64,000 nucleotides of DNA from Candidatus Bathyarchaeota archaeon (GTDB lineage Archaea; Thermoproteota; Bathyarchaeia; 40CM-2-53-6). The stretch covers positions 2,112,001-2,176,000 of the forward strand of contig CAVSBL010000002.1 of the NCBI GenBank assembly GCA_963726255.1, read 5' to 3'. The notes beneath the pieces are model-generated. The model searched no databases. It saw nothing but the letters and a program-made list of their open reading frames with translations, and was not told the origin of the DNA. The position numbers were made by a program, and so were the translations under genes. The number at the start of each line of letters is the position of its first letter. Position 1 is the first letter of the stretch. Below are positions 4,400 through 32,918 of this stretch, one piece after another.

Positions 4400-5236
4400 T
4401 TAGCTTGACTTTGTTATCTCTCGTTCGGCGATTGAGAGTGGCTTCCCAGTCGCCCCCTTTCTCCGCATTATTATTTCAGCCATCGTGCTAACAGCAATTT
4501 CACCGGGAGTTTCGGCACCAATATCCAAACCAATGGGTGTCACTACCCGTCGAAGCAAGTCCTCGGAGATCTTCTCTCTCCTCAACTTGCCCAGAATCGC
4601 TTTCGCCTTGGATTCGCTTGAAATCATTCCAATGTACGCCGCCTTTGACCCGATAACCGTCCTTAGGGCCAGCTCATCGAATTCGCCAGCATACGTCAAA
4701 ATTACCACATACGTATGCTCATCAATTGGAACTTCCCTCAACGCTTTCCCCCAGTCATCAACGATGAGCTTGTCCGCCTCCGGAAATCTTTCCTTGGTCG
4801 CGTATTCGACTCGGTCATCGACGACGATTACCCTGAACCCAAGCATTTTCCCCAGCGTAGCCATGGGCTGGGCGACGTGGCCTGCCCCGGCTAGGATCAG
4901 TGTTTCGCGGGCCGGGAAGACATTGATGAAGCAGGTTATGACGCCTGCGCAGACGGGCAGGGGCATCTTGACGGTTCGTGGTTTTCCATCTTTTATCGCT
5001 TGGATGGCTTGGTCGATTAGTTGCAGTTCAGCGATGGCTCCGCCGACAGTTCCAATCACCCTGCCCTCGCTAGTTACAAGCATTGAGGAACCGAGGTGGC
5101 GTGCGCTCGACCCTTCTTGGCCGATAATGGTTACCCATGCGAACGCCTTCGACGCTTCGATCAGCTTGTTGGCTTCTTGAACAATCTCCGCGTCCGACGC
5201 TATGGGTTGATGTTTCAACTCTTTTTCTTCTCCCAC
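4400..5236 (-). CDS. xdhC: XdhC/CoxI family Mo-cofactor insertion chaperone
   Basis: GSSAR..G.SM, GTVGG, CAG, GAGHVA, VVDDR, YIGMI, PIGLDIGAETPGEIAVS; follows the Mo subunit gene. Confidence 0.92.
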   Translation of the reverse strand: MGEEKELKHQPIASDAEIVQEANKLIEASKAFAWVTIIGQEGSSARHLGSSMLVTSEGRVIGTVGGAIAELQLIDQAIQAIKDGKPRTVKMPLPVCAGVITCFINVFPARETLILAGAGHVAQPMATLGKMLGFRVIVVDDRVEYATKERFPEADKLIVDDWGKALREVPIDEHTYVVILTYAGEFDELALRTVIGSKAAYIGMISSESKAKAILGKLRREKISEDLLRRVVTPIGLDIGAETPGEIAVSTMAEIIMRRKGATGKPLSIAEREITKSS

Positions 5237-5238
5237 GC

Positions 5239-7569
5239 CTACTTCTTGGCTTCTCGCGCCATCTTGTAAGCTGCCAATACCCTGTCCGGTAAAGTTGGTA
5301 TTTCGTAAAGCCTAACGCCTAGCGCATTATCAATCGCGTTCACAATAGCTGGGGCCGGTAGAACTATCGGTGGTTCCCCTATCGCTTTCGCGCCGTACGG
5401 GCCTAACGGTCCCGGGTATTCTATAATCATCGTTTTGATTTCAGGGATATCGAGTGATGTGGGTATGTAGTAATCTGCAAGGTTGGGGTTGACGACGATA
5501 CCGTCTTTGTGGACTAGGTCTTCCATTATCGCGTAACCCAGTCCTTGCACGGTGCCCCCTTCGATTTGGCCTATGAGGGACAGCGGGTTGATGGCTTTGC
5601 CAATATCATACGCCGCGACCATTCTCTCAACCTGCACCTTGCCAGTCTCAGTGTCAACCTCCACTTCAGCCGTGACCGCCCCGTACGTGTATTGCAAGTA
5701 TGTCGTGCCTTGGCTTGTTTCAGGGTCGTATTCGCATTTGGGTGCGGTGAATGTTCCAGCCTCCTTCAGCTGGACGCTGTGCTTGTAGGCGTATTCAATC
5801 AATTCGTGGTAAGTGACGGAGCGTTGGGTTTTCGATTTCTGGTAATATTTTGCGTCGGCTGATTCAACTTCCTTGGCGGCGCAATCTAACATTTCCGCCG
5901 CGACCTCGATTAGCTTCTGGTTTAGCGTGCCGGCTACCATCTGGGTGGCGCGGCCACCGATGGTAATCGTTCGCGAAGCAACTGTCGGGCCAGTGTCCTT
6001 GCAGAAATCTGTGTCGGGTGCTTCGAGCCTGAAGTAGTCTACGGGGAGGTGCATGGTTTCCGCTGCGATCTGCATGAGGCCGGATAGTGCTCCAGTTCCG
6101 TATTCCGTGAGTCCCGTCCTAAACCTAACCAGTCCGTCTCGGTCGATTTGCATGTGAACTGCTGCGTAGTCGTTTCCTTCTGGTCCTAGACTGTTTCCGT
6201 GGTAGATGATGGCGATGCCTAGGCCTCGCCGTTTGGTTCCAGTTATGTTAGCGAACTCTTTGCGCTTGCGGTACCAGTCCGATTCCTTTACCGACTTGCT
6301 AATGCATTCTTCAAGCCCGCATGCTTCGTCGACGACTTGGCTCGTAGCCGTCAAGCTTCCAGGTCTCAAGATGTTCAGGAGGCGGAAGTCTACTGGGTCC
6401 ATGGCGAGTTTCTTTGCAATCTCGTCTACGAGTGACTCAGCCGCGAAGTGCGCTTGCGGTCCTCCGAAGCCTCTGAAGGAGCCGGCCATGGTGTTGTTCG
6501 TGTAGACGCAGTAGGCGTCGGTTTTCACATTCGGGATAACGTACGGGCCTGTCGCATGGAAGCATGCACGGATGACTACGAGTGGGCCTAGGGAGGCGTA
6601 TGCTCCTGTGTCCGCGAGCATGGTAGTTTCCCAAGCCGTGAACTTCCCATTCTTATCCACGCCCGCCTTCAATGTCGTGACGAAGGGGTGGCGTTTTGTG
6701 TGCCCAATCATGGATTCTTCTCGCGTGTAAGCTAGCGCCGCGGGTTTTCGGGTTTTTATGGCTACTAAGGCGGCCATGCCTAAGACGTCGACTGGTATCT
6801 CATCGGATTTTGGTCCGAAGGCGCCGCCCGTAACGGCTTGGATGACGCGAACTTGTTCGGGCCGCAGCGAGAGTATCTTGGCTATGCCTGTTTGGACGTG
6901 GAAGGGGCTCTGGATCGAGCCGACGCAGGTTACTGACCCATCGGGTTCTGGAACGACGAAGCCAGCTTCGGGTTCTAGCGGGACGGGTTCTTGGAATTGG
7001 CTCTTGTAAGTGCGTTCAACGATCAGGTTCGCCCGTTTGAAGCCTTCCTCCGCATTGCCCTTTCGCAATTTCATGTGCTTGGCAATGTTTCCGTTCTTGT
7101 GAATTTTCGGCGCGTCTGGTTTAATGGCATCTACGGGAGAGAAGACTGCTGGAAGGGGTTCGTATTCCACCTTCACCAGGTCAACTGCTTCTTCAGCAAC
7201 GGACGGATCGTAGGAGGCGATGGCTGCGATTGGTTCCCCGGCAAAGCGCACCCTGTCTGTTGCGAACAGTGGCTTGTCGGGGAGCAGGGCGGTCGATTCG
7301 TTAATGCCTGGTATATCATGTGCTGTGACAACTCCGGCAACGCCCGGATACTTCCGGGCCTCCGTAACGTCCACCATTTTCAGGAGTGCATGCGGGACGC
7401 TTGACCTGACGACTTTCAAGTAGAGGGCGTTTTCTGGGACGATGTCCATTGTGTAGATTGGTTTCCCAAGCACTTTATCAACGGAGTCGAGTCGTTGGAT
7501 GCTTTTGCCCACAACTAGTAGTTGCCTGCTCCTGGTAAGTTTCTCTACTGCCGCGTGGTCATCGACCAT
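5239..7569 (-). CDS. xanthine dehydrogenase family molybdopterin-binding subunit (copy A)
   Basis: 776 aa; VRFAGEPIAA, GGAFGPK, GSFRGFGGPQ, TVASR, QIEGG, AKAIGEPP with the catalytic Glu. Confidence 0.95.
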   Translation of the reverse strand: MVDDHAAVEKLTRSRQLLVVGKSIQRLDSVDKVLGKPIYTMDIVPENALYLKVVRSSVPHALLKMVDVTEARKYPGVAGVVTAHDIPGINESTALLPDKPLFATDRVRFAGEPIAAIASYDPSVAEEAVDLVKVEYEPLPAVFSPVDAIKPDAPKIHKNGNIAKHMKLRKGNAEEGFKRANLIVERTYKSQFQEPVPLEPEAGFVVPEPDGSVTCVGSIQSPFHVQTGIAKILSLRPEQVRVIQAVTGGAFGPKSDEIPVDVLGMAALVAIKTRKPAALAYTREESMIGHTKRHPFVTTLKAGVDKNGKFTAWETTMLADTGAYASLGPLVVIRACFHATGPYVIPNVKTDAYCVYTNNTMAGSFRGFGGPQAHFAAESLVDEIAKKLAMDPVDFRLLNILRPGSLTATSQVVDEACGLEECISKSVKESDWYRKRKEFANITGTKRRGLGIAIIYHGNSLGPEGNDYAAVHMQIDRDGLVRFRTGLTEYGTGALSGLMQIAAETMHLPVDYFRLEAPDTDFCKDTGPTVASRTITIGGRATQMVAGTLNQKLIEVAAEMLDCAAKEVESADAKYYQKSKTQRSVTYHELIEYAYKHSVQLKEAGTFTAPKCEYDPETSQGTTYLQYTYGAVTAEVEVDTETGKVQVERMVAAYDIGKAINPLSLIGQIEGGTVQGLGYAIMEDLVHKDGIVVNPNLADYYIPTSLDIPEIKTMIIEYPGPLGPYGAKAIGEPPIVLPAPAIVNAIDNALGVRLYEIPTLPDRVLAAYKMAREAKK

Positions 7570-7575: not shown

Positions 7576-8034
7576 TTACCCCTTCATTTCCTCGGCCGCC
7601 GCTTGCACCGCCTCAAAGATTTTCAAGTAGCCTGTGCAGCGGCATAGAATTCCACTCGTCGCTCTCCTGATCTGATCCTGGGTAGGGTTCGGGTTCTTGT
7701 CGAGAAGGTTCTTTGCGGCCAAAATCATGGCCGGGATGCAATATCCACACTGAGAGGCGTTCCATTCCATGAATGCTCGTTGTACCGGATGTAGTTTCTC
7801 GGCAGTTCCAATTCCTTCAATGGTCTCGATGCTCTTGTTCCTGGCCTGTATGGCAAAAATCAAACACGAGTTAACAAGCTTCCCATCCATCAGCACGCCA
7901 CAAATGCCACAGTCACCAGTGCTGCAACCTTCCTTGGTTCCCTTCAACCCCAACCTGTTCCGAAGGACATCCAATAATCGTTCGTGTGATTCCACGACCA
8001 GAGCATAGTCTTTGCCGTTGACTGTGAATTTCAA
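7576..8034 (-). CDS. 2Fe-2S subunit (CoxS/XdhC-type small subunit), copy A
   Basis: GTKEGCSTGDCGIC, NSC, QCGYC, LCRCTGY. Confidence 0.95.
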   Translation of the reverse strand: MKFTVNGKDYALVVESHERLLDVLRNRLGLKGTKEGCSTGDCGICGVLMDGKLVNSCLIFAIQARNKSIETIEGIGTAEKLHPVQRAFMEWNASQCGYCIPAMILAAKNLLDKNPNPTQDQIRRATSGILCRCTGYLKIFEAVQAAAEEMKG

Positions 8035-8041: not shown

Positions 8042-8929
8042 TTAGCCAGAGTTGTTCTCTCCTAGCAATGTGTTCGTGCTTCTGCCCAGGGCTCGTCTGA
8101 ACAGCACACATGCGACATCCGTGCGGTAGTCCCCTGAAACTCTAAAGTCCGAACTGAGCTTCAACTCACTCCTCAACGCAGAGACCGCGCCCTCGACCGC
8201 TTCAGCACTCAACACTCGTCCGCGTAGCTTTTCTTCGGTTCTTCTTGCCCGTTCAGGTATCTTTCCGCCCACCCGATTGAAAGCGATTCGAATCTCCTCG
8301 ACGAGTCTAGTCTCACTCTTCGCCTTGAGGTATACAGCGCAGTTGACAAACGCTATGATTAGTGAATTCCTCATCCCGATCTTTTCGAATGCGCATGCAG
8401 AGTGTTCATCGAGTGCCTTGAACATGGTCTCAACGAGAATTTCGTTTGGTCTTAGGTCGCTTGCCCGTTTGCCCTTCAGAAAATCCTCAAGCCGCATCAC
8501 GCGTTCTCCATTTGTGCTGCGCACGCGAACTTGGGCGTCAAGAACGAGGAGTACGGGTAAGAGGTCTTCAGAGGATGAGGCAGCGCAGATGTTGCCGCCT
8601 ACGGTTGCCACGTTAATTATCGCCGGTCCACCGAACTTCGCGGCAACTTCACGGAAAACCTCATGTCGTAAGTCTATGACGGGGGAATCGCTAAGGTCAG
8701 AGATTGTTGTGAGTGCTCCAATCCTGATTGCGTTTCCCTCTTTTTTCACGTAATTGAATTCCTTTAAGCCGGAAAGGTCGACCAGCGTTTTGGGGTTGAT
8801 CTGTCGGCGTTGAATTCGGCTGATAAGGTCGCTTCCGTTCGCTATCAAGTGGACTCCGGACTGGTGGGTGTCTAAGTAGTGGAGTAGGTCGGGTAGGTCC
8901 TCTGGGACGTACATGTCAAACCTGCGCAC
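8042..8929 (-). CDS. FAD-binding subunit (CoxM/XdhB-type), copy A
   Basis: ANGSDL, IRIGALTT, ATVGGNI, DFRVSGDYR. Confidence 0.93.
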   Translation of the reverse strand: MRRFDMYVPEDLPDLLHYLDTHQSGVHLIANGSDLISRIQRRQINPKTLVDLSGLKEFNYVKKEGNAIRIGALTTISDLSDSPVIDLRHEVFREVAAKFGGPAIINVATVGGNICAASSSEDLLPVLLVLDAQVRVRSTNGERVMRLEDFLKGKRASDLRPNEILVETMFKALDEHSACAFEKIGMRNSLIIAFVNCAVYLKAKSETRLVEEIRIAFNRVGGKIPERARRTEEKLRGRVLSAEAVEGAVSALRSELKLSSDFRVSGDYRTDVACVLFRRALGRSTNTLLGENNSG

Positions 8930-8937: not shown

Positions 8938-9213
8938 TCACCCACCTGCTGCTGCTGGAACCAATAACACTAGGTCGCCGTCATTTAGCTTCTGGGAAAG
9001 GTTAGGCGGATTTTGAACCATGTTGTTAACATAGAACAGCAAGTACCCTCGAACTTGCCCTTGAGAGTCGAAGATTAGGTCCTTCACGGCCTCGCTCCTG
9101 TGGATGAGCGTCTGAAGCACCTCGTTTAGGGTGTTAGCTTCGAGCTCGAGTTCACTCTCCCCAACGCTCGAACGGAGTTCATGGAATAGTCTAACTCTGA
9201 CTCTCGCTCGCAA
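8938..9213 (-). CDS. MoaD/ThiS/SAMP family ubiquitin-like sulfur carrier
   Basis: VRVRLFHELR...YVNN...LNDGDLVLLVPAAAGG with C-terminal GG. TTG start at 9213 inferred, overlapping the end of the upstream Mo subunit gene. Confidence 0.88.
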   Translation of the reverse strand: MRARVRVRLFHELRSSVGESELELEANTLNEVLQTLIHRSEAVKDLIFDSQGQVRGYLLFYVNNMVQNPPNLSQKLNDGDLVLLVPAAAGG

Positions 9214-11518
9214 AATCTCCGAGTCCCTTTTTCTCTCTAATGGCCTTGTAGACTCGTTCGGGCGTTGCAGGTAGTGTGAAAACACGTGCGCCGGTTGCGT
9301 CGTACAAGGCGTTGGCCACAACTGAACCCACGGGAATTATGCCGATTTCCCCAAGGCCCTTTGCCCCAAACGGTCCGATCTTCTCGTAGGTTTCTACTGG
9401 GTCCACTTCAATTTCTGGTATGTCGCAGATGGTCGGGATGATGTATGTGGTGAAGTTGTTCGTCCTTACCATGCCGTTTTCGATTTGCGTATCCTCAGTC
9501 AGCGCGAAGCCCAGCCCTTGGACTATTGCACCTTCACATTGTCCTGTGTAGGATTGTGGGTTGATGATCTTTCCCGAATCGGTTGAAAGGAAGAATTTGA
9601 GTACCTTCGTCGCACCGGTCAAGGTGTTTACTTCTACTAACGCTACTGCGCTGGCGTACATGTATGACCAGTGTGGGATCTCTAAGCTGCCTTTGACTGG
9701 TTTGTCGACCCGTGGGACATTGAATCCGGCTACGACCTTCGTCTCAAAGCCTGTTCGATGCATGTATTGAGCGATTTCTGCGTACGTGGCGGACTTCTTC
9801 GGGTTCTTTATCGAAACGACATGCGATCCTTTGAACCTTAGCTCTTCTTTGCGTTCGCCGAATATTTTGGCTGCGGTCTCCAGTAGCAAGTCATTCATTT
9901 TCGGTGCTGCTGCAAGGATGGCGTTGCTTCCCCGAACCAAGGCCATGGAAGCTGATGATGAGCCAGTGTCCGGGGCCAACAGCGTATCTGCTGAAGCAAT
10001 GTAGACGTCGCTAATGTCACAGTGTAGCGTTTCAGCTGCAATCTGAGAGTATGCGGTAACCGCTCCTTGCCCAATCTCCGGGCAGCTAATTCCAACAACG
10101 AACTTACCTGTCGGCGTGATCTGGATCGACGCAGCGCCAAAATCCGGCAACGCACCGAAACCAAAACCCTTGACGGCAGTGGTGACTGCGATGCCTCTTT
10201 TGCACCAGGGAGCGGACGGGGTTGATTTGTGCCGTTCCCTGTTTCTCCATACATCGGAACGCTCAGCTTTCTGGAGTGTTTCGTAAATTCCAATGCTTCC
10301 GAGTAGCTTGTAACCGAATGGCCCGATGTCGCCCTCGCGGAGAACGTTCTTCTTACGAATTTCGAGTCGGTCCATTCCAAGTTTTTCTGCAATGACGTCC
10401 AAGTTCGATTCTACCGCAAAGTTGACTTGTGGCGCGCCGAAACCGCGAAACGCTCCGGCGACGCCGTTGTTCGTGTAAACCAGGTAAGCGTCTATGTCGA
10501 TGTTCGGTATCCGGTATGGGCCGCAAGAGTTTTCGATCGCAACGTCTAACACGGTTGGGCCCAGTGACGCGTAGGCGCCGGTATCTGCAATTACTCGCAC
10601 TTGGTTGGCGACGATTCGGCCGCCTCTGTCGGCTGCAGTTTTCATAGTGACGGTCATTGGGTGTCGTTTGATGCCGGTAACTCCCGACTCTTCCCTAGTC
10701 CAGACCATCTTCACGGGGCGTTTTGTTTTCAACGCAAGCATCGCGAGGTGAATTTGGACCGTGTTCTCCTCTTTTCCGCCGAAAGCGCCGCCGACTGGTG
10801 TCGAAATGACTCTGACTTGTTCAGGCTTAATGCCGAGCGCCCTCGACACTTGCATTTGGTCTCTGTAGGGCGATTGCCCTCCTACGTAGAGGACAATGTT
10901 TCCTTTCTCATCGAGTATGCCGACGCCGGCTTCAATCTCGAGGAACATGTGCATCTGGCGGCCGGTTTGGTAAGTGTTCTCGACAACTACGGCGGCTTCG
11001 CGGAACGCTTTTTCAACATCGCCGACGCGCACCGTTGCGTGTCTTTGTATGTTGCCTTTCTCGTGGACTTTCGGCGCATCTGGCTTCATGGCTTCGAACG
11101 GGTCGGAAACGACGGGCAGTGGTTCATACTCAACCTCGACCAGTTGTGCTGCCCTTTCTGCTGCTTCCAAGGTTTCTGCAGCTATGACGGCGATTGCGTC
11201 TCCAAGGTACCTTACCTTGTCGTGGCAAAGGACGGGTTGGTCGGGTACGATGATGCCGAATCCGTTGACGCCGGGGACATCCTTGTGGGTGAGAACAGTC
11301 ACAACGCCTGGAATAGCCTCAGCCTTCTTTGTGTTGATTCCCTTGATCCGTGCGTGGGGATACCTACTTCGGGCGGCTTTAGCAAAGAGCATGTTCGGGA
11401 ATGACATGTCCGAAAAGAATTTTGTTTCCCCGGTGACTTTGCGTGCACCATCTTTTCGAGCGACTGATTTTCCAACCCACTCGAGCTTTTGCGTGCCAAC
11501 TGCTGCGGTTTCCGTCAC
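9191..11518 (-). CDS. xanthine dehydrogenase family molybdopterin-binding subunit (copy B)
   Basis: 775 aa; VRYLGDAIA, QMHMFLE, GGAFGGKE, GAFRGFGAPQ, EIGQG, AKGLGE. Confidence 0.95.
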   Translation of the reverse strand: MTETAAVGTQKLEWVGKSVARKDGARKVTGETKFFSDMSFPNMLFAKAARSRYPHARIKGINTKKAEAIPGVVTVLTHKDVPGVNGFGIIVPDQPVLCHDKVRYLGDAIAVIAAETLEAAERAAQLVEVEYEPLPVVSDPFEAMKPDAPKVHEKGNIQRHATVRVGDVEKAFREAAVVVENTYQTGRQMHMFLEIEAGVGILDEKGNIVLYVGGQSPYRDQMQVSRALGIKPEQVRVISTPVGGAFGGKEENTVQIHLAMLALKTKRPVKMVWTREESGVTGIKRHPMTVTMKTAADRGGRIVANQVRVIADTGAYASLGPTVLDVAIENSCGPYRIPNIDIDAYLVYTNNGVAGAFRGFGAPQVNFAVESNLDVIAEKLGMDRLEIRKKNVLREGDIGPFGYKLLGSIGIYETLQKAERSDVWRNRERHKSTPSAPWCKRGIAVTTAVKGFGFGALPDFGAASIQITPTGKFVVGISCPEIGQGAVTAYSQIAAETLHCDISDVYIASADTLLAPDTGSSSASMALVRGSNAILAAAPKMNDLLLETAAKIFGERKEELRFKGSHVVSIKNPKKSATYAEIAQYMHRTGFETKVVAGFNVPRVDKPVKGSLEIPHWSYMYASAVALVEVNTLTGATKVLKFFLSTDSGKIINPQSYTGQCEGAIVQGLGFALTEDTQIENGMVRTNNFTTYIIPTICDIPEIEVDPVETYEKIGPFGAKGLGEIGIIPVGSVVANALYDATGARVFTLPATPERVYKAIREKKGLGDFASESQS

Positions 11519-11523: not shown

Positions 11524-11763
11524 TTAACCTCCTGCTATTGGCGGAACAACTAGGATTTCATCGCCGTCTTTGAGTTTCGTTGATGGTTTGAGCCTAATGC
11601 CTTCTCGTACGATGTATAGGTAGTCTCTGTCCTTGACTGGTATGGATTTGAGCAAATCTTCGGTCGTCGCTTCCTCACATAACTCAAGCATCAGTTCATT
11701 GCTCTCAAGTGCGAGCATGGGCGCGCCGAAGATTTTGACTCGAACACGGACAGGATTACCCAC
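11524..11763 (-). CDS. MoaD/ThiS/SAMP family ubiquitin-like protein (second copy)
   Basis: VRVRVKIFG...LKDGDEILVVPPIAGG with C-terminal GG. GTG start at 11763 inferred. Confidence 0.88.
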   Translation of the reverse strand: MGNPVRVRVKIFGAPMLALESNELMLELCEEATTEDLLKSIPVKDRDYLYIVREGIRLKPSTKLKDGDEILVVPPIAGG

Positions 11764-12644: not shown

Positions 12645-13121
12645 TCAATGGCTCCAATTCTTTGCGGCTTCCTGAACGGCGGCGATTATCTTAGTGTAGC
12701 CAGTGCATCTGCATAAGTTACCTGAGAGGGCGGTGCGGATTTCTTCGACAGAGGGCTTCTGGTTACGCATTAGGAGTGCTGAGGCTGAGACGATCATGCC
12801 CGGAATACAATGGCCGCACTGGACGGCTCCTTCCTTGAGAAAAGCTTCCTGAACGGGGTTCAATCTCCCGTCCTTCAACAGTCCTTCTGACGTAATGATC
12901 TCAGAGCCCTGCGCCTGTGAAACCAGCACGAGGCAAGAACAGACGGGTTGGCCGTTCATCAATACTGTGCAGGCGCCGCATTCGCCCTTGGCGCAATCTT
13001 CCTTTGGTCCCGTTACGTGAAGCTGCTCGCGGAGGACTTCAAGCAAGGTGTAGGCAGGGGGGGTGTTCACCGTTACCTGTTGCCCGTTGAGCTTGAAACT
13101 AACAGCACGTTCAATACGCAT
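12645..13121 (-). CDS. 2Fe-2S subunit, copy B
   Basis: KEDCAKGECGACTVL, CSC, QCGHC, GNLCRCTGY. Confidence 0.95.
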   Translation of the reverse strand: MRIERAVSFKLNGQQVTVNTPPAYTLLEVLREQLHVTGPKEDCAKGECGACTVLMNGQPVCSCLVLVSQAQGSEIITSEGLLKDGRLNPVQEAFLKEGAVQCGHCIPGMIVSASALLMRNQKPSVEEIRTALSGNLCRCTGYTKIIAAVQEAAKNWSH

Positions 13122-22087: not shown

Positions 22088-22091
22088 GTGT

Positions 22092-24921: not shown

Positions 24922-24964
24922 AATATATCTTCAACTCTCCGTGACGGAAGCTGGCTGGCTCCAA

Positions 24965-25777
24965 CTAGATATAACTTGCGAAAGCTTCCCAGCCAGGGTG
25001 TCGCTGAAACAGTCGCGTTTCCGTAGTTAGCGGCAGGAACGCGTGCCCGGCTGCAGAAATGATGTTGGTACTTAACTTGTAACTGGTCAGCGTTTGAGTG
25101 ACCTTCTCATTATTGTTATAGTACTCACCGTAGACAACTTGCCCCAACCCTGCGTCAAACCACAATACCTCCGACAATGTTCCGTTTTGTGTTACTGTTA
25201 CCTTGAACGCGTGAAATTGGCCGAGAGGAGTCGAAACATCATCTATCGACGTAGTTGTCCTCACCTCTAGAAGCAACTTTGTTGAAGTTATGGTTGTGTT
25301 CTTCACCTCAGTTGTGGTATGCAGAGTGCTGTTCACGGTCCATTTATCCCCGATGTGGAGGGGGACTTGAAATAGCTGGACGGGTGGCGTGTAGATTGTT
25401 GTGGAGTTGGCGAGTAGGTTGCCGATTGTTGGCCTGAACGTTTTGACCTCATGCCAATCTAGTGTGGTCCAGTGGTATTGAGTTGACAGATGTTGCGAAT
25501 CATCGTACAGAATCACATACGCCTCAGTCCCGTTCAAATCGGCAACCTCTCTTACTGACACGGTTAACTGGTAGCTCTTAGAATCAGGAAATACGACCTT
25601 GTAGTTCCAGCTGTCACCCGCGGCCAAACGGCGTGGTAACGTACTTCTCGACTCATTCCACATGAAGGCTAGTGGAGAGAGCGTCGCGAGAATCGCCATC
25701 AGAAACACAAGTGCAACAATGGAGCGTCTTGCCAGAATCAGCCCCGCCCTTCTAATCCTTTCAGACTTGTTGCGCAA
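24965..25777 (-). CDS. exported beta-rich hypothetical protein (DUF3108/TapB-like)
   Basis: N-terminal signal/TM; GDSWNY, PL.IGDKW, V.TPLG.F.AFKV, WF..GLG.V. True start uncertain. Confidence 0.65.
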   Translation of the reverse strand: MRNKSERIRRAGLILARRSIVALVFLMAILATLSPLAFMWNESRSTLPRRLAAGDSWNYKVVFPDSKSYQLTVSVREVADLNGTEAYVILYDDSQHLSTQYHWTTLDWHEVKTFRPTIGNLLANSTTIYTPPVQLFQVPLHIGDKWTVNSTLHTTTEVKNTTITSTKLLLEVRTTTSIDDVSTPLGQFHAFKVTVTQNGTLSEVLWFDAGLGQVVYGEYYNNNEKVTQTLTSYKLSTNIISAAGHAFLPLTTETRLFQRHPGWEAFASYI

Positions 25778-25825: not shown

Positions 25826-27227
25826 GTGTTCATCATGGCATCTATTCTGATTTCCGGCGGAACAATCATAACCATGGATTCAAATCGGCGAGTGATCAGG
25901 AACGGAGCCGTTCGGGTCGAGAACGATCGCATCGTCGAACTTGGAAAGGCAAACCAAGTCGGGACGCAGTCGCAGGCGGAGTCCGAACTAGACGCAAGCG
26001 GTATGGTTGTGCTCCCGGGCCTGATAGATACGCACGTGCACCTCGCCCAAGCTCTTCTTCGAGGTTGTGCCGACGATACCTCCTTGATAGATTGGCTACA
26101 GAAATTCGTTTGGCCACTTCAGGGCAACTTCGAAGCGGAGGATGGTAGGACGAGCGCGGAACTGTGCATGTTGGAAATGATTAAGTCAGGAACGACAACC
26201 TTCCTTGAGAGCCTCTTACACTCGCGTTACGGATTCGACGGCATCGCTGAAAGCGTGCAGAAATCTGGAATGCGCGGTTTTCTCTCCAAAACAGTGATGG
26301 GGCTACCCGGCTATGGGACCGAAAAGAGCATAATGCATCCGGGAATGATCGAGGACGCGGAAACCTGCCTTCACGAAGTCAAATCCCACTTCAAACGTTG
26401 GGATGGGAAGGCGAATGGGAGAATTAGGGTTTGGTACGGTGCTCGGTCGCTAGGTGGCTGCACAAAGGAATTGTACGAGCTTATCGCTAAAGGCGCTCAA
26501 GAGCTTGGGACGGGCGTCACGATGCATCTGAGCGAGGTCCAGGAGGATGTGCGATACGCCAAGAAAGAGTTCGGAATGATGCCTGCAGAATTCATGAACA
26601 AAGTCGGCTTAGCGGGACGAAATGTTGTTTTCGCGCATGGGGTATGGTTGACGGAGAGTGAGTGGGCCATACTAGCTCGGAAGGGTGCGCATGTGGCGCA
26701 CTGCCCATCTTCGAACATGAAGCTATCGTCTGGAATTGCTAGCGTTCCTGAGATGTTGAAGGCCGGTGTAAATGTCGGCCTCGGATGCGATGGCGGGCCA
26801 AGCAACAACTGCTACGATATGGTCCGTGAAATGAAGACCGCTTCGCTACTTCAGAAGGCCAGATTGCTCGACCCGCTGACTATGAGCGCTGAAACAGTCC
26901 TAGAGATGGCTACTATAAACGGGGCACGCGCTCTTAGGACTACAGAACGATCTTGGTTCGATAGAGGTCGGAAAGAAAGCCGATATGATCTTGATAACGT
27001 TGAAAAAACCGCACTTGACACCCGCTTTCAACCCCGTGTCACATCTTGTATACGCGGCGGAGGGAACCGACGTACAGACAGTAATAATTGATGGAGAGGT
27101 AGTGATGGAGAACCGAAACCTCAAAACACTCAGAGAAGAGGAAATCCTCAAAGAGGCCAGCAACAGAAGCGAAAAGCTTCTAGAACGGGCGGGTCTGGAA
27201 GTCAAACCTAAGTGGGCTATTAGTTAA
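25826..27227 (+). pseudogene. amidohydrolase (SsnA/MtaD/DadD-like nucleobase deaminase family) interrupted by a +1 frameshift at about 26935
   Basis: PGLIDTHVH, MHLSE, AHCPSSNMKL, LGCDG. Removing one base in CTCTTAGGA restores GARALGLQNDLGSIEVGKKAD and joins ORF 26985-27227. May be a sequence error. Confidence 0.85.
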
Positions 27228-27282: not shown

Positions 27283-28379
27283 ATGAGCATAAAATGGACG
27301 AAATCCAGTAAGGTCGCAGATGGAGTGTTCCAAACGATTGGCCGAACTCCACTCGTTAGACTAAGGAACATACCTGCCTCTGAGGGTGTCAAAGCAAACA
27401 TTCTGGTTAAGCTTGAGTACATGAACCCCACGGGCAGCTTGAAGGATCGTATCTATTTCGAGATGATAACGAAAGCGATTGCGCGCAAGGAGCTCCGGCC
27501 TGGAATGGAGATTCTCGAAGCCTCCACAGGGAACGCGGGTATCGCTTGCTCATTTGTTGGAACAACTCTAGGTCACAAGGTGACCATAGTCATGCCGGCA
27601 GGCATGAGTCAGGAGAGAATGAAGATCATTCGAGCGTACGGAGCCGAAATCATTACTACGCCAGGCGGTGAGAGCGACGTAGACTTATGTCTAAACGAAA
27701 TTGAGGAGCTGAAACAAGCAAGCCCAAGCAAGTATTGGGAGCCAGGGCAATTTAGCAACAAAGACAATGTTGCGGCACACTACAAAACGACAGGTCCTGA
27801 AATTTGGGAACAGAGCGGGGGAAAAGTTGACTGTTTCCTCGCCTCGCAGGGGACTGGAGGAACATTAACTGGTGTGGGAAAGTACCTAAGAAAGAAGAAA
27901 AAGAAGGTGGCCCTCTTCGCCGTGGAACCTTCCGAAGCTCCAATCCTTGCCCACCGTCAGTGGGGAACCCACAGAATTGAAGGTGTCGGGGATTGGGCTG
28001 TCCCAAGAATCCTTGACGTCAGCCACCTCACTGGGATAGTTAATACGCGCTCTGATGTTTCCATTGAAATGGCCCGAAGGCGAAGGAAGAAGGAATCTTT
28101 TGCGGAAATAGGGAAGAGGGGAAAGTCGCTAAGGAAGAGGGAATCTTTTGCGGAATATCGTCAGGCTGCAAAGTACTAGCTGTTCTAAAAGTGGCCAAGC
28201 GTCACCCTGAATACAAGACGATTGTAACTATGGTGAACGACACTGGTCAGAGATACTTCTCGACCGAACTCTGTGGCGAAAAGAAACATGTGGAACTCCC
28301 TGAAAGAGAAGTACCGTTTGACGAGTATACAACGACGGAGCTGAACACATACGAATCGCGTTGGGAAATAGTTGAATGA
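27283..28379 (+). pseudogene. PLP-dependent cysteine synthase family protein disrupted by a local duplication and frameshift at about 28080-28155
   Basis: NPTGSLKDR, ASTGNAG, GTGGT, HRIEG. The C-terminal KEEGIFCGISSG...DTGQRYFST is in another frame and the KEEGIFCG segment appears twice. Confidence 0.85.
28083..28155 (+). repeat. imperfect 25-nt direct repeat, period 48
   Basis: aaggaagaaggaatcttttgcggaa (28083-28107) and aaggaagagggaatcttttgcggaa (28131-28155). Confidence 0.85.
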
Positions 28380-29626
28380 CATCTTTCCTTAAGCTGATGA
28401 AATGTGCGCGCTGTGGGAAGGAATATCCGCCTGAATCTGGCGCAATCCGGTGCGTGAACAAAGACGACGGCCGTCTAGATATTTCCTATGACTACGATGC
28501 TTTGCGCGATTTCGTCAGCGTGGAGACATTTTCGAAAAGGCAAAGAGGGGTTTGGAAATACAGGGAACTGCTGCCAGTTAATGATCCGAAAAACATAGTG
28601 ACCCTCGGAGAAGGCGGAACGCCTTTCCTTCCGGCACACCGCCTAGGCGACAAACTCGGCCTAAGTAATCTTTGGCTGCTCGATGACACACGCAATCCGA
28701 CAGCCTCATTCAAAGATAGACCGATGACTGTTGGCGTTTCAAAAGCTGTTGAGTTAGGATACAAAACAGTGGTGTCAGCTTCCAGCGGTAACGCCGCTGC
28801 GGCGCTGTCAGCCTACTCTGCTAAGGCGGGGCTCAAATGCATCACCTTCGTCCCAGAGATGGCGAGCATAGGAAAATTGGCTCAGCTAACGATGTACGGG
28901 GCTCATGTCGTGAAAGTTCGAGGGCTAGAGTCAGGGGAGGACCCGACTGTGAAAATGCTCAAGGCTGTTTGCGACCGGAAAAATTGGTACCCTTGCCCAA
29001 GCTTCGGCCCTATGAATCCCTACCAAGCGGAGGGCCCGAAGACCATGTCGTATGAGATTGTTGAAGGACTGAGTTGGGAGGTTCCTGACTGGGTTTTCGT
29101 TCCGGTAGGTGCAGGAGGTGCATTAGCAGGAAATTGGAAGGGCTACTTGGATTTTCAGAACTTAGGTTTCATAAGATCAATGCCGAGAATGGCAGCGGTC
29201 CAATCGACCGGTTGCGCGCCCGTGATCCGTGCGTACGAGCAGGGCGCCGACCCGAAAAACATAGTTCCATGGGAAATGCCTGACTCCGTCGCAACAGGAC
29301 TCATGGACCCGTATCCTTGGGACGGTGATGCAGCTCTCGTTGCTATCCGGAGTTCTCATGGGGCAGCCGTTTCAGTCTCCAACGAAGAAATCCTAGAGGC
29401 ACAGAGGAAGCTCGCCAAGCTCGAAGGAATTTTCGCCGAGCCGTCCGGCGTAACTTCACTTGCCGGCTTGATCAAAGAGCGTGAAAAAATAGACAGGGCC
29501 GATTGTGTCGTGGTAGAAATAACGGGAAGCGGTTTGAAAGATCCGAATGTAGCAACGAAGGGAATGCCCGAGATACCTATCATTGATTCCTCGTTTCAAG
29601 AATTGGAACGAGTGTTGAAACTCTAA
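28376..29626 (+). CDS. thrC: threonine synthase family PLP enzyme
   Basis: N-terminal CxxC, TLGEGGTP, NPTASFKDR, ASSGNA, VPVGAG, EGIFAEP, TGSGLKD; ATGA overlap with the upstream gene. Actual substrate uncertain. Confidence 0.8.
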   Translation: MTSFLKLMKCARCGKEYPPESGAIRCVNKDDGRLDISYDYDALRDFVSVETFSKRQRGVWKYRELLPVNDPKNIVTLGEGGTPFLPAHRLGDKLGLSNLWLLDDTRNPTASFKDRPMTVGVSKAVELGYKTVVSASSGNAAAALSAYSAKAGLKCITFVPEMASIGKLAQLTMYGAHVVKVRGLESGEDPTVKMLKAVCDRKNWYPCPSFGPMNPYQAEGPKTMSYEIVEGLSWEVPDWVFVPVGAGGALAGNWKGYLDFQNLGFIRSMPRMAAVQSTGCAPVIRAYEQGADPKNIVPWEMPDSVATGLMDPYPWDGDAALVAIRSSHGAAVSVSNEEILEAQRKLAKLEGIFAEPSGVTSLAGLIKEREKIDRADCVVVEITGSGLKDPNVATKGMPEIPIIDSSFQELERVLKL

Positions 29627-29693: not shown

Positions 29694-30719
29694 TCATCTT
29701 TTCTTGTTGCCCATGGTCACTGCGAGAACGGCCATTTTGGTGTACATTCCATTCTCGGCTTGAGGATAGATAACTGAGTGGCGGCCATCCATGACCTCAT
29801 CGGTGGCTTCTTCACCGCGAAGTACGGGCAAGACGTGAGTCACAATCGCTTTTCTCTCCATCTTGTCGAGCAAATCCTGAGTGAGCATCCAATCACGATA
29901 CTTCTCATGTAGTTCTACCTCTCTTTCCTTGCCGAACTTGCTCGCGCCCAATTGCAGTAGTTCGTTCGAGGCCCAATTTCTGGGGAAAACCGCCTGCGCT
30001 CCTTCGATCGCTGAATTGAGGTCGTTTGAGACTTCGAAGGTGCCGCCTGATTCTCTGGCGTTAGATTTTGCCGTCTCAACAATTGTTGGGTCGATTTCGA
30101 AGCCCGGCGGGTGGGCGAGAACGACATTCATCCCAAAGCGCGGCATGATTAGTGCTTCTTCTTGTATGCTGCATCTACCTCGGAAGCTCTTTGCATAACC
30201 CCACATTATGACGTACTTCTTCCCCTGCACCTTGCCCAACGCTTCCTGAGTCGTCATCAAGTCAGCAAGCCCCTGGGTGGGGTGGTAGGTGCAGCAGGCC
30301 ATGTTTATGACAGGAATCTCGGCGTGCTTGGCGTACTCTCGAACAACAGACACACCGGCCCCGTAAACGTAGTCGATTGCGGAATCAAGAATTCGAATAC
30401 CTAGTCCCTGGCCATACTTCTCATACATCTTGGCCACATCTTTCGGGGCCTCCCCAGACCCTAGTCGAGTCGTTGAGACGTCAATGTACAGCGCATGTCC
30501 ACCGAGATAGGTCATTCCAGCCTCAAAGGCTGCCCTAGTTCTAGTCGACGGTGCATAGAACAACATGAAGAACGTCTTATTTCGAAGGAGAGTTGGAACC
30601 CGACCACGCCGATATTTCGCTTTCAGGTCCCGCGCTAGCTTGAGCGTTGCCCTGAGCTCATCAACAGACCACTCTTGTGTAGTGATCAAGTCTCTACCCG
30701 CCAAATCAATCCTAGACAT
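29694..30719 (-). CDS. carbamoyltransferase, non-canonical (YgeW/AOTCase-like branch)
   Basis: STRTR, HPTQ, QAEN present; HVLP replaces HCLP and PRNWAS replaces the OTC DxxxSMG motif. Confidence 0.88.
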   Translation of the reverse strand: MSRIDLAGRDLITTQEWSVDELRATLKLARDLKAKYRRGRVPTLLRNKTFFMLFYAPSTRTRAAFEAGMTYLGGHALYIDVSTTRLGSGEAPKDVAKMYEKYGQGLGIRILDSAIDYVYGAGVSVVREYAKHAEIPVINMACCTYHPTQGLADLMTTQEALGKVQGKKYVIMWGYAKSFRGRCSIQEEALIMPRFGMNVVLAHPPGFEIDPTIVETAKSNARESGGTFEVSNDLNSAIEGAQAVFPRNWASNELLQLGASKFGKEREVELHEKYRDWMLTQDLLDKMERKAIVTHVLPVLRGEEATDEVMDGRHSVIYPQAENGMYTKMAVLAVTMGNKKR

Positions 30720-30851: not shown

Positions 30852-31805
30852 TTGACAGACAAACTCATAGTTATTGCCCTCGGGGGAAACGCTCTCCTCC
30901 GGCGAGGGCAGAAGGGCACCTTCGAAGAGCAATACCGCAACGTGAAGGAAACCGTAACGAAGATTGCGGATCTGATTGAACGCGGATACAAAATAGTCAT
31001 GACGCACGGGAATGGTCCGCAGGTGGGTGCCACACTTCTGAGGCACGAAGCCGCGAAGAGCATCGTTCCAGCTCTTCCGCTTGACGCGTGTGGCGCTGAG
31101 ACGCAAGGGTTCATCGGATACATGATTCAACAGGCTCTCAGAAACGAGCTCAAATCACGCGGGATCGACAAGTACGTTCTCACCATCATAACGCGGGTCA
31201 TTGTCGACAGGCATGACTTAGCTTTTCAAAATCCCACGAAACCGATCGGCCCCTTTTACTCCAAGGAGGAAGCAGCCAAAGTGAAAGAGCAGAAGCCAGA
31301 GCTGGTCATCAAAGAAGATGCTGGCCGCGGCTACAGACGCGTCGTCCCCTCTCCAGACCCAAAAATAATCGCAGAGCGCTCCGCCATTAGGGCCTTGGTA
31401 GATGCTGGTTTCGTTGTAGTTGCATGTGGCGGTGGGGGAATCCCAATCATAGAAGAGAATGGACTCGCGGTCGGAGTGGAGGCCGTAATCGATAAGGATC
31501 TGGGAGCCCAACGCTTAGCAACCCTGATCGGCGCTAACATCCTTGTAATCCTAACTGATGTGGAAGGCGCCTACATCAACTATGGAACACCCAAACAGGA
31601 GTTGATTAGAGAAGCCTCTTCAGGCAAGCTAAAGAATTATCTTCGAGAAGGCCAGTTCAAAGAGGGAAGCATGGCACCAAAAGTCGAGGCTGCAATCAGG
31701 TTCGTCGAAAGCGGCGGCGAGCGGGCAATAATCGCAGCCTTGGGCAGTCTGACCGAAGCCCTTGAAACAAAGACCGGAACGCAAGTTGTGATGCCAAGAG
31801 CTTAA
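30852..31805 (+). CDS. arcC: carbamate kinase
   Basis: [52 protein letters not shown]. Confidence 0.96.
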
Positions 31806-31847
31806 TTCAAATAACGGCAGCCAACAGGGCACGACGAGGTTACAGGG

Positions 31848-32918
31848 TTGTTGTCATTCGTAGGTAAGTGGAAAGCTAAACATTTCCTAGACACAAATGA
31901 TTTCTCGCAAGAACAAATCAAAGAAGTTCTGGATGCAGCGGATGTTCTGAGGAAACTATTCCGATCGCGCAAGGAGCATCGATACTTATCTGGAAAAACA
32001 CTCTTCATGATGTTCTATAACAGGTCGCTCAGGACAAGGAATTCTTTCGAGGCCGGAATGTATCAGCTCGGCGGTCACGCGCACTTTCTTAGCCCACAGG
32101 ATGTGTATACCCCCGCGTTGCCGGAAGATATGGTCGCGTACCAGACTGAGGCCATCTCTGACGTTTCCCGCGTCCTAAGCAGGTACGGAGACGCGATTGC
32201 GATTAGAATCTATGGTGATGCCGCGAAATGGAACATAGGCAGGGGCCACAAGGTTGTACAGGAATTTGCCAAATACGCAACAATCCCCGTGCTAAACATG
32301 GAAGACGATATGTATCACCCCTTTCAAGCACTCGCCGACGCGCAGGCTATGAGAAACGCTATTCCAAAGCTTCAAGGAAAGAAACTCGTAGTTTCCTACG
32401 CCTACTCCGGCGGGCTGAAGCCGCTCGCTGTCCCTCAAAGTGAGGTTCTGATTGGAACACAGCTTGGAATGGATGTCGTTCTCGCGCACCCGCATGGTTT
32501 CGAGCTGGAAGACGTCGCACTTGATGCCGCGAAGGCGAATGCGGATAGATATGGCGGCGGATTCCACGTAGTGAATGATATGAAAGAAGCGTTCAATGGC
32601 GCTGATGTTGTGTACCCGAAGGCTTGGTCTCCGAAGAACTATTTCCCACCCCACAGCGGCGCCTTAGATAAGGACGGTGCAACCAGCTACCAGGACAAGT
32701 TCAAGGACTGGATTTGTACCCAGAAGATGATGGACCTTACGAAGAAGGGCAAGTATATGCACTGCGGCCCGGCCGACCGAGGCCAAGAAGTTACTGACGA
32801 AGTAATCGACAACGAGAGTTATTCACTGTACTTCGAACAAGCCGAAAACAGGCTACACGCCCAAAAGGCCGTAATGGCCATGGTCATGGGAGATCGCCGC
32901 GGTCCACGTCGAAAGTAA
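31848..32918 (+). CDS. YgeW-like carbamoyltransferase
   Basis: SLRTR, HPFQ, YAYSGGLKPLAVPQS, YPKAWSP, MHCGPAD, resembling recalled YgeW motifs WAYS...KPLSVPQ, YPKSW, MHCLPAD; no SMG motif. Confidence 0.88.
   Translation: MLSFVGKWKAKHFLDTNDFSQEQIKEVLDAADVLRKLFRSRKEHRYLSGKTLFMMFYNRSLRTRNSFEAGMYQLGGHAHFLSPQDVYTPALPEDMVAYQTEAISDVSRVLSRYGDAIAIRIYGDAAKWNIGRGHKVVQEFAKYATIPVLNMEDDMYHPFQALADAQAMRNAIPKLQGKKLVVSYAYSGGLKPLAVPQSEVLIGTQLGMDVVLAHPHGFELEDVALDAAKANADRYGGGFHVVNDMKEAFNGADVVYPKAWSPKNYFPPHSGALDKDGATSYQDKFKDWICTQKMMDLTKKGKYMHCGPADRGQEVTDEVIDNESYSLYFEQAENRLHAQKAVMAMVMGDRRGPRRK

Follow-up and report, generated by a model that had tools for sequence, protein, structure and literature searches.

Does a bathyarchaeon carry its own form of the reductive, ATP-yielding purine degradation known from bacteria? 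The question is raised by a stretch of 64,000 nucleotides from Candidatus Bathyarchaeota archaeon (GenBank assembly GCA_963726255.1, contig CAVSBL010000002.1, positions 2,112,001 to 2,176,000), which is called the window throughout and in which positions are counted from the first letter. An island at 4400-32918 of the window combines Xdh-family hydroxylases, a Mer-like LLM oxidoreductase (LLM1), an adenine deaminase, a BMP-type ABC importer, an amidohydrolase (AmhW), CysK-like and ThrC-like enzymes of the pyridoxal phosphate (PLP) fold-type II, a carbamate kinase and two carbamoyltransferases (CT1 and CT2). This island is probably the larger part of an archaeal anaerobic reductive purine (urate/2,8-dioxopurine) pathway that is split over at least two loci.

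The bacterial route proceeds by dehydroxylation of urate to 2,8-dioxopurine; ring reduction follows, and opening by SsnA and then HyuA gives 2,3-diureidopropionate (PMC12507026; bioRxiv 10.1101/2025.04.24.650524). According to the available text of the same two sources, one ureido group is phosphorolysed by YgeW with formation of ATP via YqeA, the other is hydrolysed by YgeY, and the diaminopropionate is converted into pyruvate by YgeX; in Clostridium sporogenes, a separate xanthine dehydrogenase (XDH) channels hypoxanthine and xanthine into urate. For Chloroflexota, Li et al. (2025), whose network, in the available text, comprises bacteria only, have proposed an F420 luciferase-family yanthine reductase (PMC12507026). 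The word 'archaea' does not occur in the available text of either key paper (PMC12507026; bioRxiv 10.1101/2025.04.24.650524). A metatranscriptome paper assigns transcripts of 'purine catabolism via yagS' to Chloroflexota and Bathyarchaeota, with no pathway described in its available text (PMC13197434).

Results and Discussion

Neighbourhoods of CT1 in archaea

A scan with a CT1 alignment, one genome per species, gave 334 relatives, and gene neighbourhoods were taken from the best 80 of the 334. These 80 were archaeal without exception and belonged to Bathyarchaeia, Hadarchaeota and Desulfurococcales, including Zestosphaera, with further entries labelled Baldrarchaeota, Hodarchaeaceae, Nitrososphaerota and Thermoproteota. 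Open reading frames (ORFs) within 10 kb of CT1 were called and assigned by their best blastp match to a reference set (E <= 1e-15, at least 50 % reference coverage); since many loci are short contigs, the counts are lower bounds. Comparison genomes (G111, G064, G121-G133) and loci are given G and L numbers, and C1, C2 and C5 are contigs of the genome under study.

Carbamate kinase stood near CT1 in 49 of the 80 loci, a ThrC-like gene in 42 and a carbamoyltransferase of the CT2/CT3 type (CT3 being a CT2 paralogue described below) in 41; apart from the kinase, no partner of CT1 is more constant than the ThrC-like paralogue. SsnA was found in 19 loci, a PreA/UacX-like gene in 17, an IF2B-like gene in 16, BMP-type ABC permeases in 15, an AmhW-type gene in 12, a CysK-like gene in 10 and a cyclic amidohydrolase in eight. 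LLM genes were present in seven loci, all within the 13 closest Bathyarchaeia. Rarer neighbours were an Xdh molybdopterin (Mo) subunit (5/80), adenine deaminase (4/80) and M20 hydrolases (2/80); DpaL and YgfK were each found in none of the 80. The original prediction held that the genes of the island belong together, and the grouping of CT1, carbamate kinase, ThrC-like gene and CT2 does co-occur in other archaeal genomes, recurring over several phyla beyond chance.

The recurring arrangement takes several forms. In Zestosphaera tikiterensis, the genes for CT1, CT2, carbamate kinase, SsnA, a PreA-like protein and the ThrC-like protein are co-directional, followed by two ribose-1,5-bisphosphate isomerase genes. 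A hadarchaeotal locus (L075) holds an Xdh Mo subunit, CT1, SsnA (445.9 bits, cut-off 444) and a PreA-like gene. The cluster of a genome labelled Candidatus Hecatella orcuttiae (G064) contains a BMP-type ABC importer, SsnA, two carbamoyltransferases, a true hydantoinase (476 bits, cut-off 393), carbamate kinase, PreA together with PreT, a ThrC-like gene and CysK. As a separate observation on Hecatella (L014/L015/L023), the cluster of SsnA, carbamoyltransferase, hydantoinase and PreTA genes is interspersed with three MtmB-like genes and with genes for a corrinoid protein, a URO-D-type methyltransferase and an aldehyde:ferredoxin oxidoreductase; these may serve the demethylation of methylated bases.

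Joint occurrence was followed in two samples. In a class sample of 121 genomes, which included the genome under study (G000), CT1 orthologues and SsnA (E <= 1e-90) were both present in exactly G000, G111 and G064. The second sample consisted of 50 of the 80 CT1-bearing genomes; the 30 left out were mostly short contigs, several of them with SsnA beside CT1. An SsnA-family match was present in 47 of these 50 genomes at E <= 1e-80 and in 46 at 1e-90, and exceeded the curated cut-off in 11; as the genomes are interrelated, such counts overstate independence, and several phyla are spanned nonetheless. Gene neighbourhood and joint occurrence with SsnA thus support the tie to the reductive urate pathway that had been proposed from the window. 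Homologues of the CT2 and CT1 proteins, 120 among the matches listed, were all at least 73 % identical, and their named sources were almost all archaeal.

Linkage with a distant SsnA locus

No protein of the window exceeded a cut-off for SsnA (TIGR03314/NF005540), HyuA-type hydantoinase or YgeW, and the predicted absence of YgfK, YgeY, YgeX and HyuA from the window was confirmed. The window contains only part of the system: 250 kb from the window lie MocA, a cyclic amidohydrolase (29 % identical to E. coli HyuA), a GDSL hydrolase and then an SsnA-family protein (33 % identical to E. coli SsnA), followed by a Nudix-IF2B fusion, an MFS transporter and an M20 peptidase. With a near-threshold SsnA and a hydantoinase-like enzyme at this distance, HyuA and SsnA are to be regarded as displaced rather than replaced.

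The two loci are united in relatives. In G133, whose CT1 is 70 % identical to that of the window, one stretch of about 43 kb contains the Nudix-IF2B fusion, carbamate kinase, CT1, the ThrC-like gene, the ABC importer, AmhW, LLM1 and both Xdh triads. Within it, LLM1 is divergent from an operon in the order FeS2-FAD2-Mo2-MoaD-FAD1-FeS1-Mo1, after which come XdhC, MocA, the cyclic amidohydrolase, SsnA and thioredoxin reductase (TrxR). The order XdhC-MocA-cyclic amidohydrolase-SsnA-TrxR is also found on one short contig of G111. In L027, L028 and L034, CT2, carbamate kinase and CT1 stand directly beside an LLM gene, an Xdh triad, a further LLM gene and an M20 gene, and in L029 and L030 CT1, the ThrC-like gene and AmhW stand beside LLM1 and Xdh triads. 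Because of the layouts in G133, G111 and L027/L028/L034, the island of the window and the distant SsnA locus are regarded as parts of one variably arranged unit.

The fusion of a Nudix domain with an IF-2B/ribose-1,5-bisphosphate-isomerase-like domain that follows SsnA is encoded at L009:13001-14293 (C2:1863001-1864293), with a counterpart at L096:18403-20396. The IF2B-like neighbours hint that the ribose of nucleosides is handled alongside the base.

Carbamoyltransferases and carbamate kinase

CT1, on the minus strand, faces the genes of carbamate kinase and CT2 on the plus strand, and the kinase gene sits between the two carbamoyltransferase genes. CT1 scored 211.7 bits with the ornithine carbamoyltransferase (OTC) model (cut-off 306) and 202 bits with the N-acetylornithine carbamoyltransferase (AOTC) model (cut-off 288); CT2 scored 237 bits with the former. 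The closest solved structures were Pyrococcus OTC for CT1 (184 bits) and the Xanthomonas N-acetylornithine carbamoyltransferase for CT2 (211 bits), and the YgeW structure gave 125-139 bits with CT1/CT2. CT1 proteins carry the motif HVLP; OTC, YgeW and CT2 carry HCLP or HCGP. In a maximum-likelihood tree of 42 rows, aspartate (ATCases) and ornithine carbamoyltransferases (OTCases), including the OTC-like protein of this genome, branch first, and CT1 and CT2 lie outside the OTC clade. Separate clades are formed by CT1 (89/100) and CT2/CT3 (95/89), which stand with YgeW, on a very long branch, in one weakly supported group (83/86). CT1 defines an archaea-wide orphan carbamoyltransferase family. 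By context, CT1 and CT2 may act like YgeW, yet they are no YgeW orthologues.

The genome under study holds five genes of the OTCase fold, namely an OTC-like gene, an ATC-like gene, CT1, CT2 and CT3. CT3 is 57 % identical to CT2 and exceeds the AOTC cut-off (313.6 against 288 bits); identity to E. coli YgeW is 34 % for CT3, 32 % for CT2, 30 % for CT1 and 25 % for the housekeeping OTC. At the CT3 locus (L018; C2:1468214-1471190 and flanks), a creatininase-family hydrolase over its cut-off and an F420-G6PDH-like LLM stand in a row, and three APC permeases and a DUF1989 protein are neighbours. This locus has the look of a second set for degrading ureides or cyclic amides, one that would feed into the single carbamate kinase.

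Carbamate kinase is present in a single copy and is 48.6 % identical to E. coli YqeA, its sole match listed. The CT-linked kinases of relatives are 80-97 % identical to it, and those of genomes of the same family without CT1 are 56-58 % identical and stand in another gene context. An arginine deiminase route was rejected (best ArcA match 35 bits, cut-off 489).

In the original prediction, the second carbamoyltransferase took the place of YgeY. Two orphan clades do flank the kinase, with the CT2/CT3 type accompanying CT1 as counted above; the replacement itself is still inferred. The M20 protein beside a third Xdh triad, elsewhere in this genome, is of the ArgE/DapE type (144 bits with the YgeY models, cut-off 321), and because such M20 proteins stand beside another set of Xdh and LLM genes, a hydrolytic YgeY-like step may be used instead.

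LLM oxidoreductases and ring reduction

LLM1 is divergent from the Xdh operon of the window, and the same divergent pair of LLM1 and 2Fe-2S genes occurs in G133. The protein scores below the Mer cut-offs, and its top families and six best solved relatives are all F420-dependent (Mer, 145 bits). It is a candidate for an F420H2-dependent ring reductase. A role as housekeeping Mer was ruled out by the scores below the Mer cut-offs and by the lack of an orthologue in the 120 other genomes of the class sample, where LLM1 is confined to the genome under study. Among the 50 CT1-bearing genomes, orthologues (77-93 % identical) were found in 13, which are exactly G121-G133, one subclade of Bathyarchaeia.

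YgfK (TIGR03315) was not found in this genome, the best match reaching 36.6 bits against a cut-off of 835, nor was a UacX/PreA-like reductase (blastp, 1e-10). PreA/UacX-like matches (E <= 1e-55) are present in 32 of the 50 CT1-bearing genomes. In 19 of the 50, as read from coordinates, a PreA-like gene lies at most 100 bp from SsnA, an adjacency that mirrors ygfK-ssnA and uacX-ssnA in bacteria. The 11 genomes G121-G131 had no PreA-like match, and G132 and G133 had only short matches of DHODH length. This complementary distribution fits an exchange of LLM1 for UacX/YgfK, as does the lack of a YgfK or PreA-like protein in this genome; the earlier suggestion that the LLM enzyme replaces YgfK may apply to this subclade without full-length PreA-like proteins.

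A second LLM gene of the window, LLM0, flanks the XdhC end of the Xdh operon, outside the stretch 4400-32918 to which the original prediction referred. A third LLM candidate is encoded at C2:1659722-1660681. An LLM gene adjoins each of the three Xdh triads of this genome, which contains 15 LLM genes in total, and this grouping exceeds chance.

Xdh-family enzymes

An 8.7-kb minus-strand operon runs from 13121 down to 4400 in the order FeS2-FAD2-Mo2-MoaD-FAD1-FeS1-Mo1-XdhC, so that the window holds two complete triads of an Xdh-family hydroxylase with FAD and FeS partners, together with XdhC. Mo2 is, narrowly, the top match of E. coli XdhD in this genome (301 against 278-282 bits) and shows a GGAFGGK-E motif. 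Mo1 keeps the equivalents of bovine Q767, R880, F914 and E1261, with Ser at the position of E802; these are residue numbers that we take to be those of the bovine XDH active site for the comparison of Mo1 and Mo2. The active-site patterns are mixed, and E. coli XdhA and XdhD likewise deviate from bovine XDH.

The listed ORF of the MoaD-like protein extends to 9321, the family match comprises residues 41-127, and G133 has the gene at the corresponding position. The FAD and Mo genes of triad 2 are separated by 240 bp, where a short ORF (11524-11793, minus strand) is found; the equivalent site of G133 carries an ORF 47.6 % identical to it, so this may represent either a small protein under conservation or a shadow of frames that overlap. 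The third Xdh triad is accompanied by an LLM gene, the ArgE/DapE-type M20 hydrolase and CoA-transferase genes. At L022 (C2:2012161-2020993), the second adenine deaminase and second BMP-type ABC importer of this genome share a co-directional operon with a solitary Xdh Mo subunit, beside which neither FAD nor FeS partners are encoded.

Fold-type II PLP enzymes

DpaL/YgeX was not found in the genome under study (best match 48 bits, cut-off 274). The ThrC-like orthologues beside CT1 in the 42 loci are 50-98 % identical, and both findings are in line with the original proposal that a ThrC- or CysK-like enzyme stands in for YgeX. Three ThrC-family genes are present in this genome; the best of them lies elsewhere and scores 332 bits on TIGR00260, compared with 222 bits for the ThrC-like protein of the island. 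Near ~28082, the CysK-like gene shows a net deficit of 4 nt relative to L024 and C5, which puts its C-terminus out of frame; its relatives have open frames of 357-383 aa.

Proposed pathway and its alternatives

Gene identity, linkage and joint occurrence are observed, and every substrate assignment is inferred by mapping the archaeal genes on the bacterial scheme. Purine bases or nucleosides would be imported; adenine deaminase would act on adenine, and AmhW would probably deaminate another base. One Xdh-type enzyme would hydroxylate hypoxanthine and xanthine to urate, and the other would take off the C6 oxygen to give 2,8-dioxopurine, comparable to XDH and DOPDH of C. sporogenes. An LLM enzyme, with LLM1 as first candidate, would then take over the role of YgfK or UacX and reduce the ring with F420H2, and the two rings would be opened by SsnA and the cyclic amidohydrolase to 2,3-diureidopropionate. 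The ureido groups would be cleaved with phosphate by CT1 and CT2 to carbamoyl phosphate, from which carbamate kinase would form ATP, CO2 and NH3, possibly with two ATP per purine. The remaining diamino C3 acid would be converted into pyruvate and ammonia by the ThrC-like enzyme, and by the CysK-like enzyme where it is intact, replacing YgeX.

In a bolder, joint version, purine fermentation by an own 2,8-dioxopurine route would extend over several archaeal phyla (Bathyarchaeia, Hadarchaeota, Desulfurococcales and others), a reductive route in which CT1 and CT2 together yield two ATP per purine, the ThrC-like protein is a new kind of diaminopropionate-converting enzyme and one Bathyarchaeia subclade uses a Mer-like, F420H2-dependent LLM ring reductase with scavenged FO. 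In this combined form the proposal is tentative and rather doubtful.

Several observations weigh against the assignment of the island to reductive purine degradation. SsnA and the cyclic amidohydrolase lie outside the window, and the distant SsnA is just under both of its cut-offs (424.7 against 444 and 409.6 against 455.5 bits). The hydantoinase search of this genome returned a hydantoinase-like enzyme, which does stand beside SsnA and stays under the cut-off (311.9 against 393.25 bits, TIGR02033), with a comparable score for allantoinase (330.5 against 357.85). CT1 and CT2 reach no family cut-off, and with the YgeW models (TIGR03316/NF005538) CT1 gives 127/135 and CT2 158/165 bits, the cut-offs being 500/453. 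Xdh active-site residues match bovine XDH only partly, and the closest solved relatives are 4-hydroxybenzoyl-CoA reductase and nicotinate dehydrogenase. The ThrC-like protein exceeds the NCBIfam cut-off for threonine synthase (331.7 against 303 bits), and the frames of AmhW and the CysK-like gene are broken in this copy. Carbamate kinase occurs in 51 of the 121 class genomes, commonly without CT1, and CarA/CarB were not found in this genome by blastp with the E. coli proteins, so that the kinase could run in the biosynthetic direction; the cell may rely on carbamate kinase or on catabolic carbamoyltransferases for its carbamoyl phosphate. LLM1 is never directly beside SsnA, unlike ygfK and uacX, and the complementarity of LLM and UacX counts as one evolutionary event, as it is confined to one clade. 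Finally, the search for F420 (cof) genes was successful in part: CofD (346 bits, cut-off 257) and three CofE genes over their cut-offs are present, and the FO synthase genes CofG and CofH were not found in this genome, which is 98.5 % complete. F420 may come from scavenged FO, and the F420 supply of the cell is uncertain.

The modules could instead be neighbours with separate functions, the Xdh and LLM enzymes acting on other N-heterocycles or aldehydes, the importer and deaminases serving purine salvage, the CysK- and ThrC-like enzymes being biosynthetic, and the kinase with CT1/CT2 providing or consuming carbamoyl phosphate for biosynthesis. The missing CarA/CarB match, the many class-sample kinases without CT1 or CT2, the threonine synthase score, the solved Xdh relatives other than XDH and a multi-copy cassette that splits the island all agree with such a patchwork. 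It is nevertheless unlikely, given that the genome has separate OTC-like and ATC-like genes and a better-scoring ThrC, that kinases without CT1 differ in context and identity from the CT-linked ones, that the linkage of CT1, carbamate kinase, ThrC-like gene and SsnA is repeated across phyla, and that all modules are contiguous in G133. A phosphorolytic ureide pathway with ATP formed via carbamate kinase might, alternatively, start from another substrate: allantoin or allantoate (with ureidoglycine and oxamate carbamoyltransferases), pyrimidines or hydantoins (with dihydropyrimidinase-type opening and phosphorolysis of N-carbamoyl-beta-amino acids) or modified bases. By score, the cyclic amidohydrolase is about equally close to allantoinase and hydantoinase, a PreA/dihydropyrimidine-dehydrogenase-like gene occurs in many of the archaeal clusters, MtmB-like and corrinoid genes are interleaved in that of Hecatella, and the Rubrobacter pair of carbamoyltransferase and carbamate kinase acts on allantoate (PMC4016543). 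Against this stand the absence of uricase from all seven genomes searched (this genome and six family members; other urate-opening enzymes were not searched), the adenine deaminases and Xdh enzymes adjoining the importer, and the presence of SsnA, the marker of uricolytic clusters according to Li et al. (PMC12507026), in 47 of the 50 CT1-bearing genomes. C. difficile UacX, a homologue of PydA, moreover acts with SsnA on 2,8-dioxopurine (PMC12507026). A different ureide substrate is accordingly considered improbable, and a uricase/allantoin route less likely.

The reductive purine pathway could also be present with another enzyme as ring reductase, the LLM proteins serving Xdh in some other way, such as F420-linked electron exchange or a side reaction. 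LLM genes adjoin Xdh genes and not SsnA, FO synthase was not found, and G111 has CT1 and SsnA with no LLM1 orthologue at E <= 1e-70. This variant appears very unlikely in view of the lack of a YgfK or PreA-like candidate in this genome, the complementary distributions of LLM1 and PreA-like proteins, and the F420 luciferase-family reductase proposed independently for SsnA clusters of Chloroflexota (PMC12507026).

Gene content of the window

The inventory was drawn from an ORF listing and Pfam and NCBIfam scans of the window (Table 1), by which every gene class named in the original prediction was recovered at about its predicted place. CDC48, FEN1, Trm5/TYW2 and TrmB are archaeal markers elsewhere in the window and, together with the source names of close homologues, assign the organism to Bathyarchaeia; the GC content is even over the whole length of the window. 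The genome comprises 2.42 Mb with a contamination estimate of 9.3 %.

Table 1. Genes of the island and of the adjoining LLM0, with model scores in bits
Feature	Position	Strand	Evidence
LLM0, F420-dependent LLM-class oxidoreductase	2752..3669	+	TIGR03619 183.8 (cut-off 166.9); PF00296
XdhC-family molybdenum-cofactor insertion/maturation factor	4400..5236	-	PF13478, PF02625; below NCBIfam equivalog cut-offs
Mo1, molybdopterin subunit, triad 1	5239..7569	-	XdhA 550 (cut-off 780)
2Fe-2S subunit, triad 1	7576..8034	-	PF01799, PF00111
FAD subunit, triad 1	8042..8929	-	PF00941, PF03450
MoaD/ThiS-like small protein between triads	8938..~9201	-	TIGR01687 50.4 (cut-off 49.5)
Mo2, molybdopterin subunit, triad 2, PucD-like	9191..11518	-	pucD 646 (cut-off 784)
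FAD subunit, triad 2	11756..12640	-	Pfam
2Fe-2S subunit, triad 2; first gene of operon	12645..13121	-	Pfam
LLM1, Mer-like LLM oxidoreductase	13385..14383	+	Mer model 198 (cut-off 276)
Adenine deaminase	14410..16218	-	TIGR01178 555.7 (cut-off 472.5)
Cassette: metallophosphoesterase, APC-family permease, 265-aa protein	16403..19988	.	multi-copy in this genome
BMP/PnrA-type ABC importer: two permeases, double ATPase, binding protein	20075..24921	-	Pfam, NCBIfam
AmhW, MtaD/DadD-type amidohydrolase	25826..27188; in the gene inventory 25826..27091	+	DadD model 349.8
CysK-like fold-type II PLP enzyme	27283..28179	+	cysKM 268.9 (cut-off 344)
ThrC-like fold-type II PLP enzyme	28376..29626	+	NF006050 331.7 (cut-off 303)
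CT1, orphan carbamoyltransferase	29694..30719	-	no NCBIfam cut-off reached
Carbamate kinase	30852..31805	+	429.1 (cut-off 358.25)
CT2, second orphan carbamoyltransferase, AOTC-like	31848..32918	+	AOTC 277.3 (cut-off 288)

The importer operon (20075..25777, minus strand) is led by a 270-aa protein, for which the ESM Atlas gave weak matches to archaeal clusters without a name. AmhW had been described as SsnA/MtaD-like; the MtaD/DadD likeness holds (349.8 bits), and with the SsnA models it reaches 165-169 bits against cut-offs of 444-455, so that it is not an SsnA. AmhW probably deaminates a nucleobase or nucleoside. Its frame is broken at ~26935 by one base that is extra relative to the 96.5 %-identical relative L024 and to contig C5, and the C-terminal 83 model positions fall in another frame; AmhW is intact in C1, C5 and L024-L026. 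Window positions 16400-28200 have strain-variant copies in contigs C1 (12.9 kb) and C5 (11.8 kb), in which most genes are 94-100 % identical and the AmhW gene only 88-89 %; C1 runs on into a different PALP gene. These variant copies probably account for the contamination estimate.

The cassette between adenine deaminase and importer is absent at the same place in the relatives L029 and L030. The phosphoesterase and the ~260-aa protein each have at least five paralogues elsewhere in this genome, several of them mutually adjacent and together with APC-family permeases, and the cassette is probably not a core part of the purine system. Paralogues lie near C2:1477615-1480408, 1893486-1895210, 1902362-1904111 and at other places, and metallophosphoesterases also occur near the CT1 clusters of Zestosphaera (L096) and L057.

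Downstream of CT2, positions 33564-42471 encode an RDD protein, a thioredoxin reductase, an MBL-fold protein, a HemL-like aminotransferase and an Ord-like 2,4-diaminopentanoate dehydrogenase, followed by an HdrD-like membrane FeS protein and ETF beta/alpha. As far as the Ord-like gene, these genes keep their synteny with CT2 in close relatives. The thioredoxin reductase (33564-34511) is treated as housekeeping because it exceeds the TrxR cut-off; for this reason it was set aside as a pathway reductase, although such a gene follows SsnA in G111 and G133.

Comparison with known systems

The pathway of E. coli and C. sporogenes (XdhD-YgfM or DOPDH, YgfK, SsnA, HyuA, YgeW, YqeA, YgeY, YgeX) shares with the archaeal system Xdh-family Mo enzymes, of two kinds as in C. 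sporogenes, SsnA-family and cyclic amidohydrolases, the cofactor genes XdhC and MocA, and a carbamoyltransferase adjoining a YqeA-related carbamate kinase with ATP formed from carbamoyl phosphate. It differs in that the archaeal genome has no orthologue of YgfK, YgeX/DpaL or YgeY and has two carbamoyltransferases of different clades, neither of them a YgeW orthologue; a ThrC-like protein is the constant partner, LLM genes adjoin the Xdh genes, and an archaeal host carries the genes at two loci. In the variant of C. difficile, UacX, the PydA homologue, takes the place of YgfK and UacY that of YgeW and YqeA. A PreA/UacX-like flavoprotein is likewise found in most archaeal CT1 clusters outside the subclade of the window, whereas the genome of the window has no UacX-like gene and the archaeal clusters keep carbamoyltransferase and kinase, with no hydrolytic UacY. 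The F420-type clusters of Chloroflexota, which were compared by their published description only, resemble the island in that an LLM protein (PF00296) replaces YgfK/UacX, and differ from it in host and in the split arrangement of the archaeal cluster.

Rubrobacter xylanophilus uses ureidoglycine carbamoyltransferase and carbamate kinase likewise as a catabolic pair in purine breakdown (PMC4016543); its route starts from uricase and allantoinase, whereas here no uricase was found and SsnA is the linked marker. The arginine deiminase pathway (ArcA, catabolic OTC, ArcC) has a similar ATP-yielding pair of carbamoyltransferase and kinase, but here no ArcA was found and neither CT1 nor CT2 falls within the OTC clade. 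The literature searched, which did not include supplementary files, gave no description of the reductive purine pathway in archaea. The claim of an undescribed archaeal variant therefore stands for the archaeal occurrence and the module of CT1 and the ThrC-like protein, neither of which was found in print, and has to be given up for the idea of an F420 reductase, which is already in print for Chloroflexota (PMC12507026). What is new is the range over archaea, the constant presence of the CT1 and ThrC-like families in the system, and the complementarity of LLM and UacX inside archaea.

Conclusion

Anaerobic purine catabolism has been worked out in bacteria only, and its reductive route only in 2025. 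If the reading of the island as part of a reductive purine pathway is true, nucleic-acid bases could supply widespread uncultured archaea with ATP, nitrogen and pyruvate in the absence of oxygen, which would matter for the turnover of carbon and nitrogen in anoxic soils and sediments. Functions would be assigned to two orphan carbamoyltransferase clades and to a ThrC-like clade, now annotated as ornithine carbamoyltransferase and threonine synthase, and a concrete candidate for an F420-dependent purine ring reductase would be at hand.

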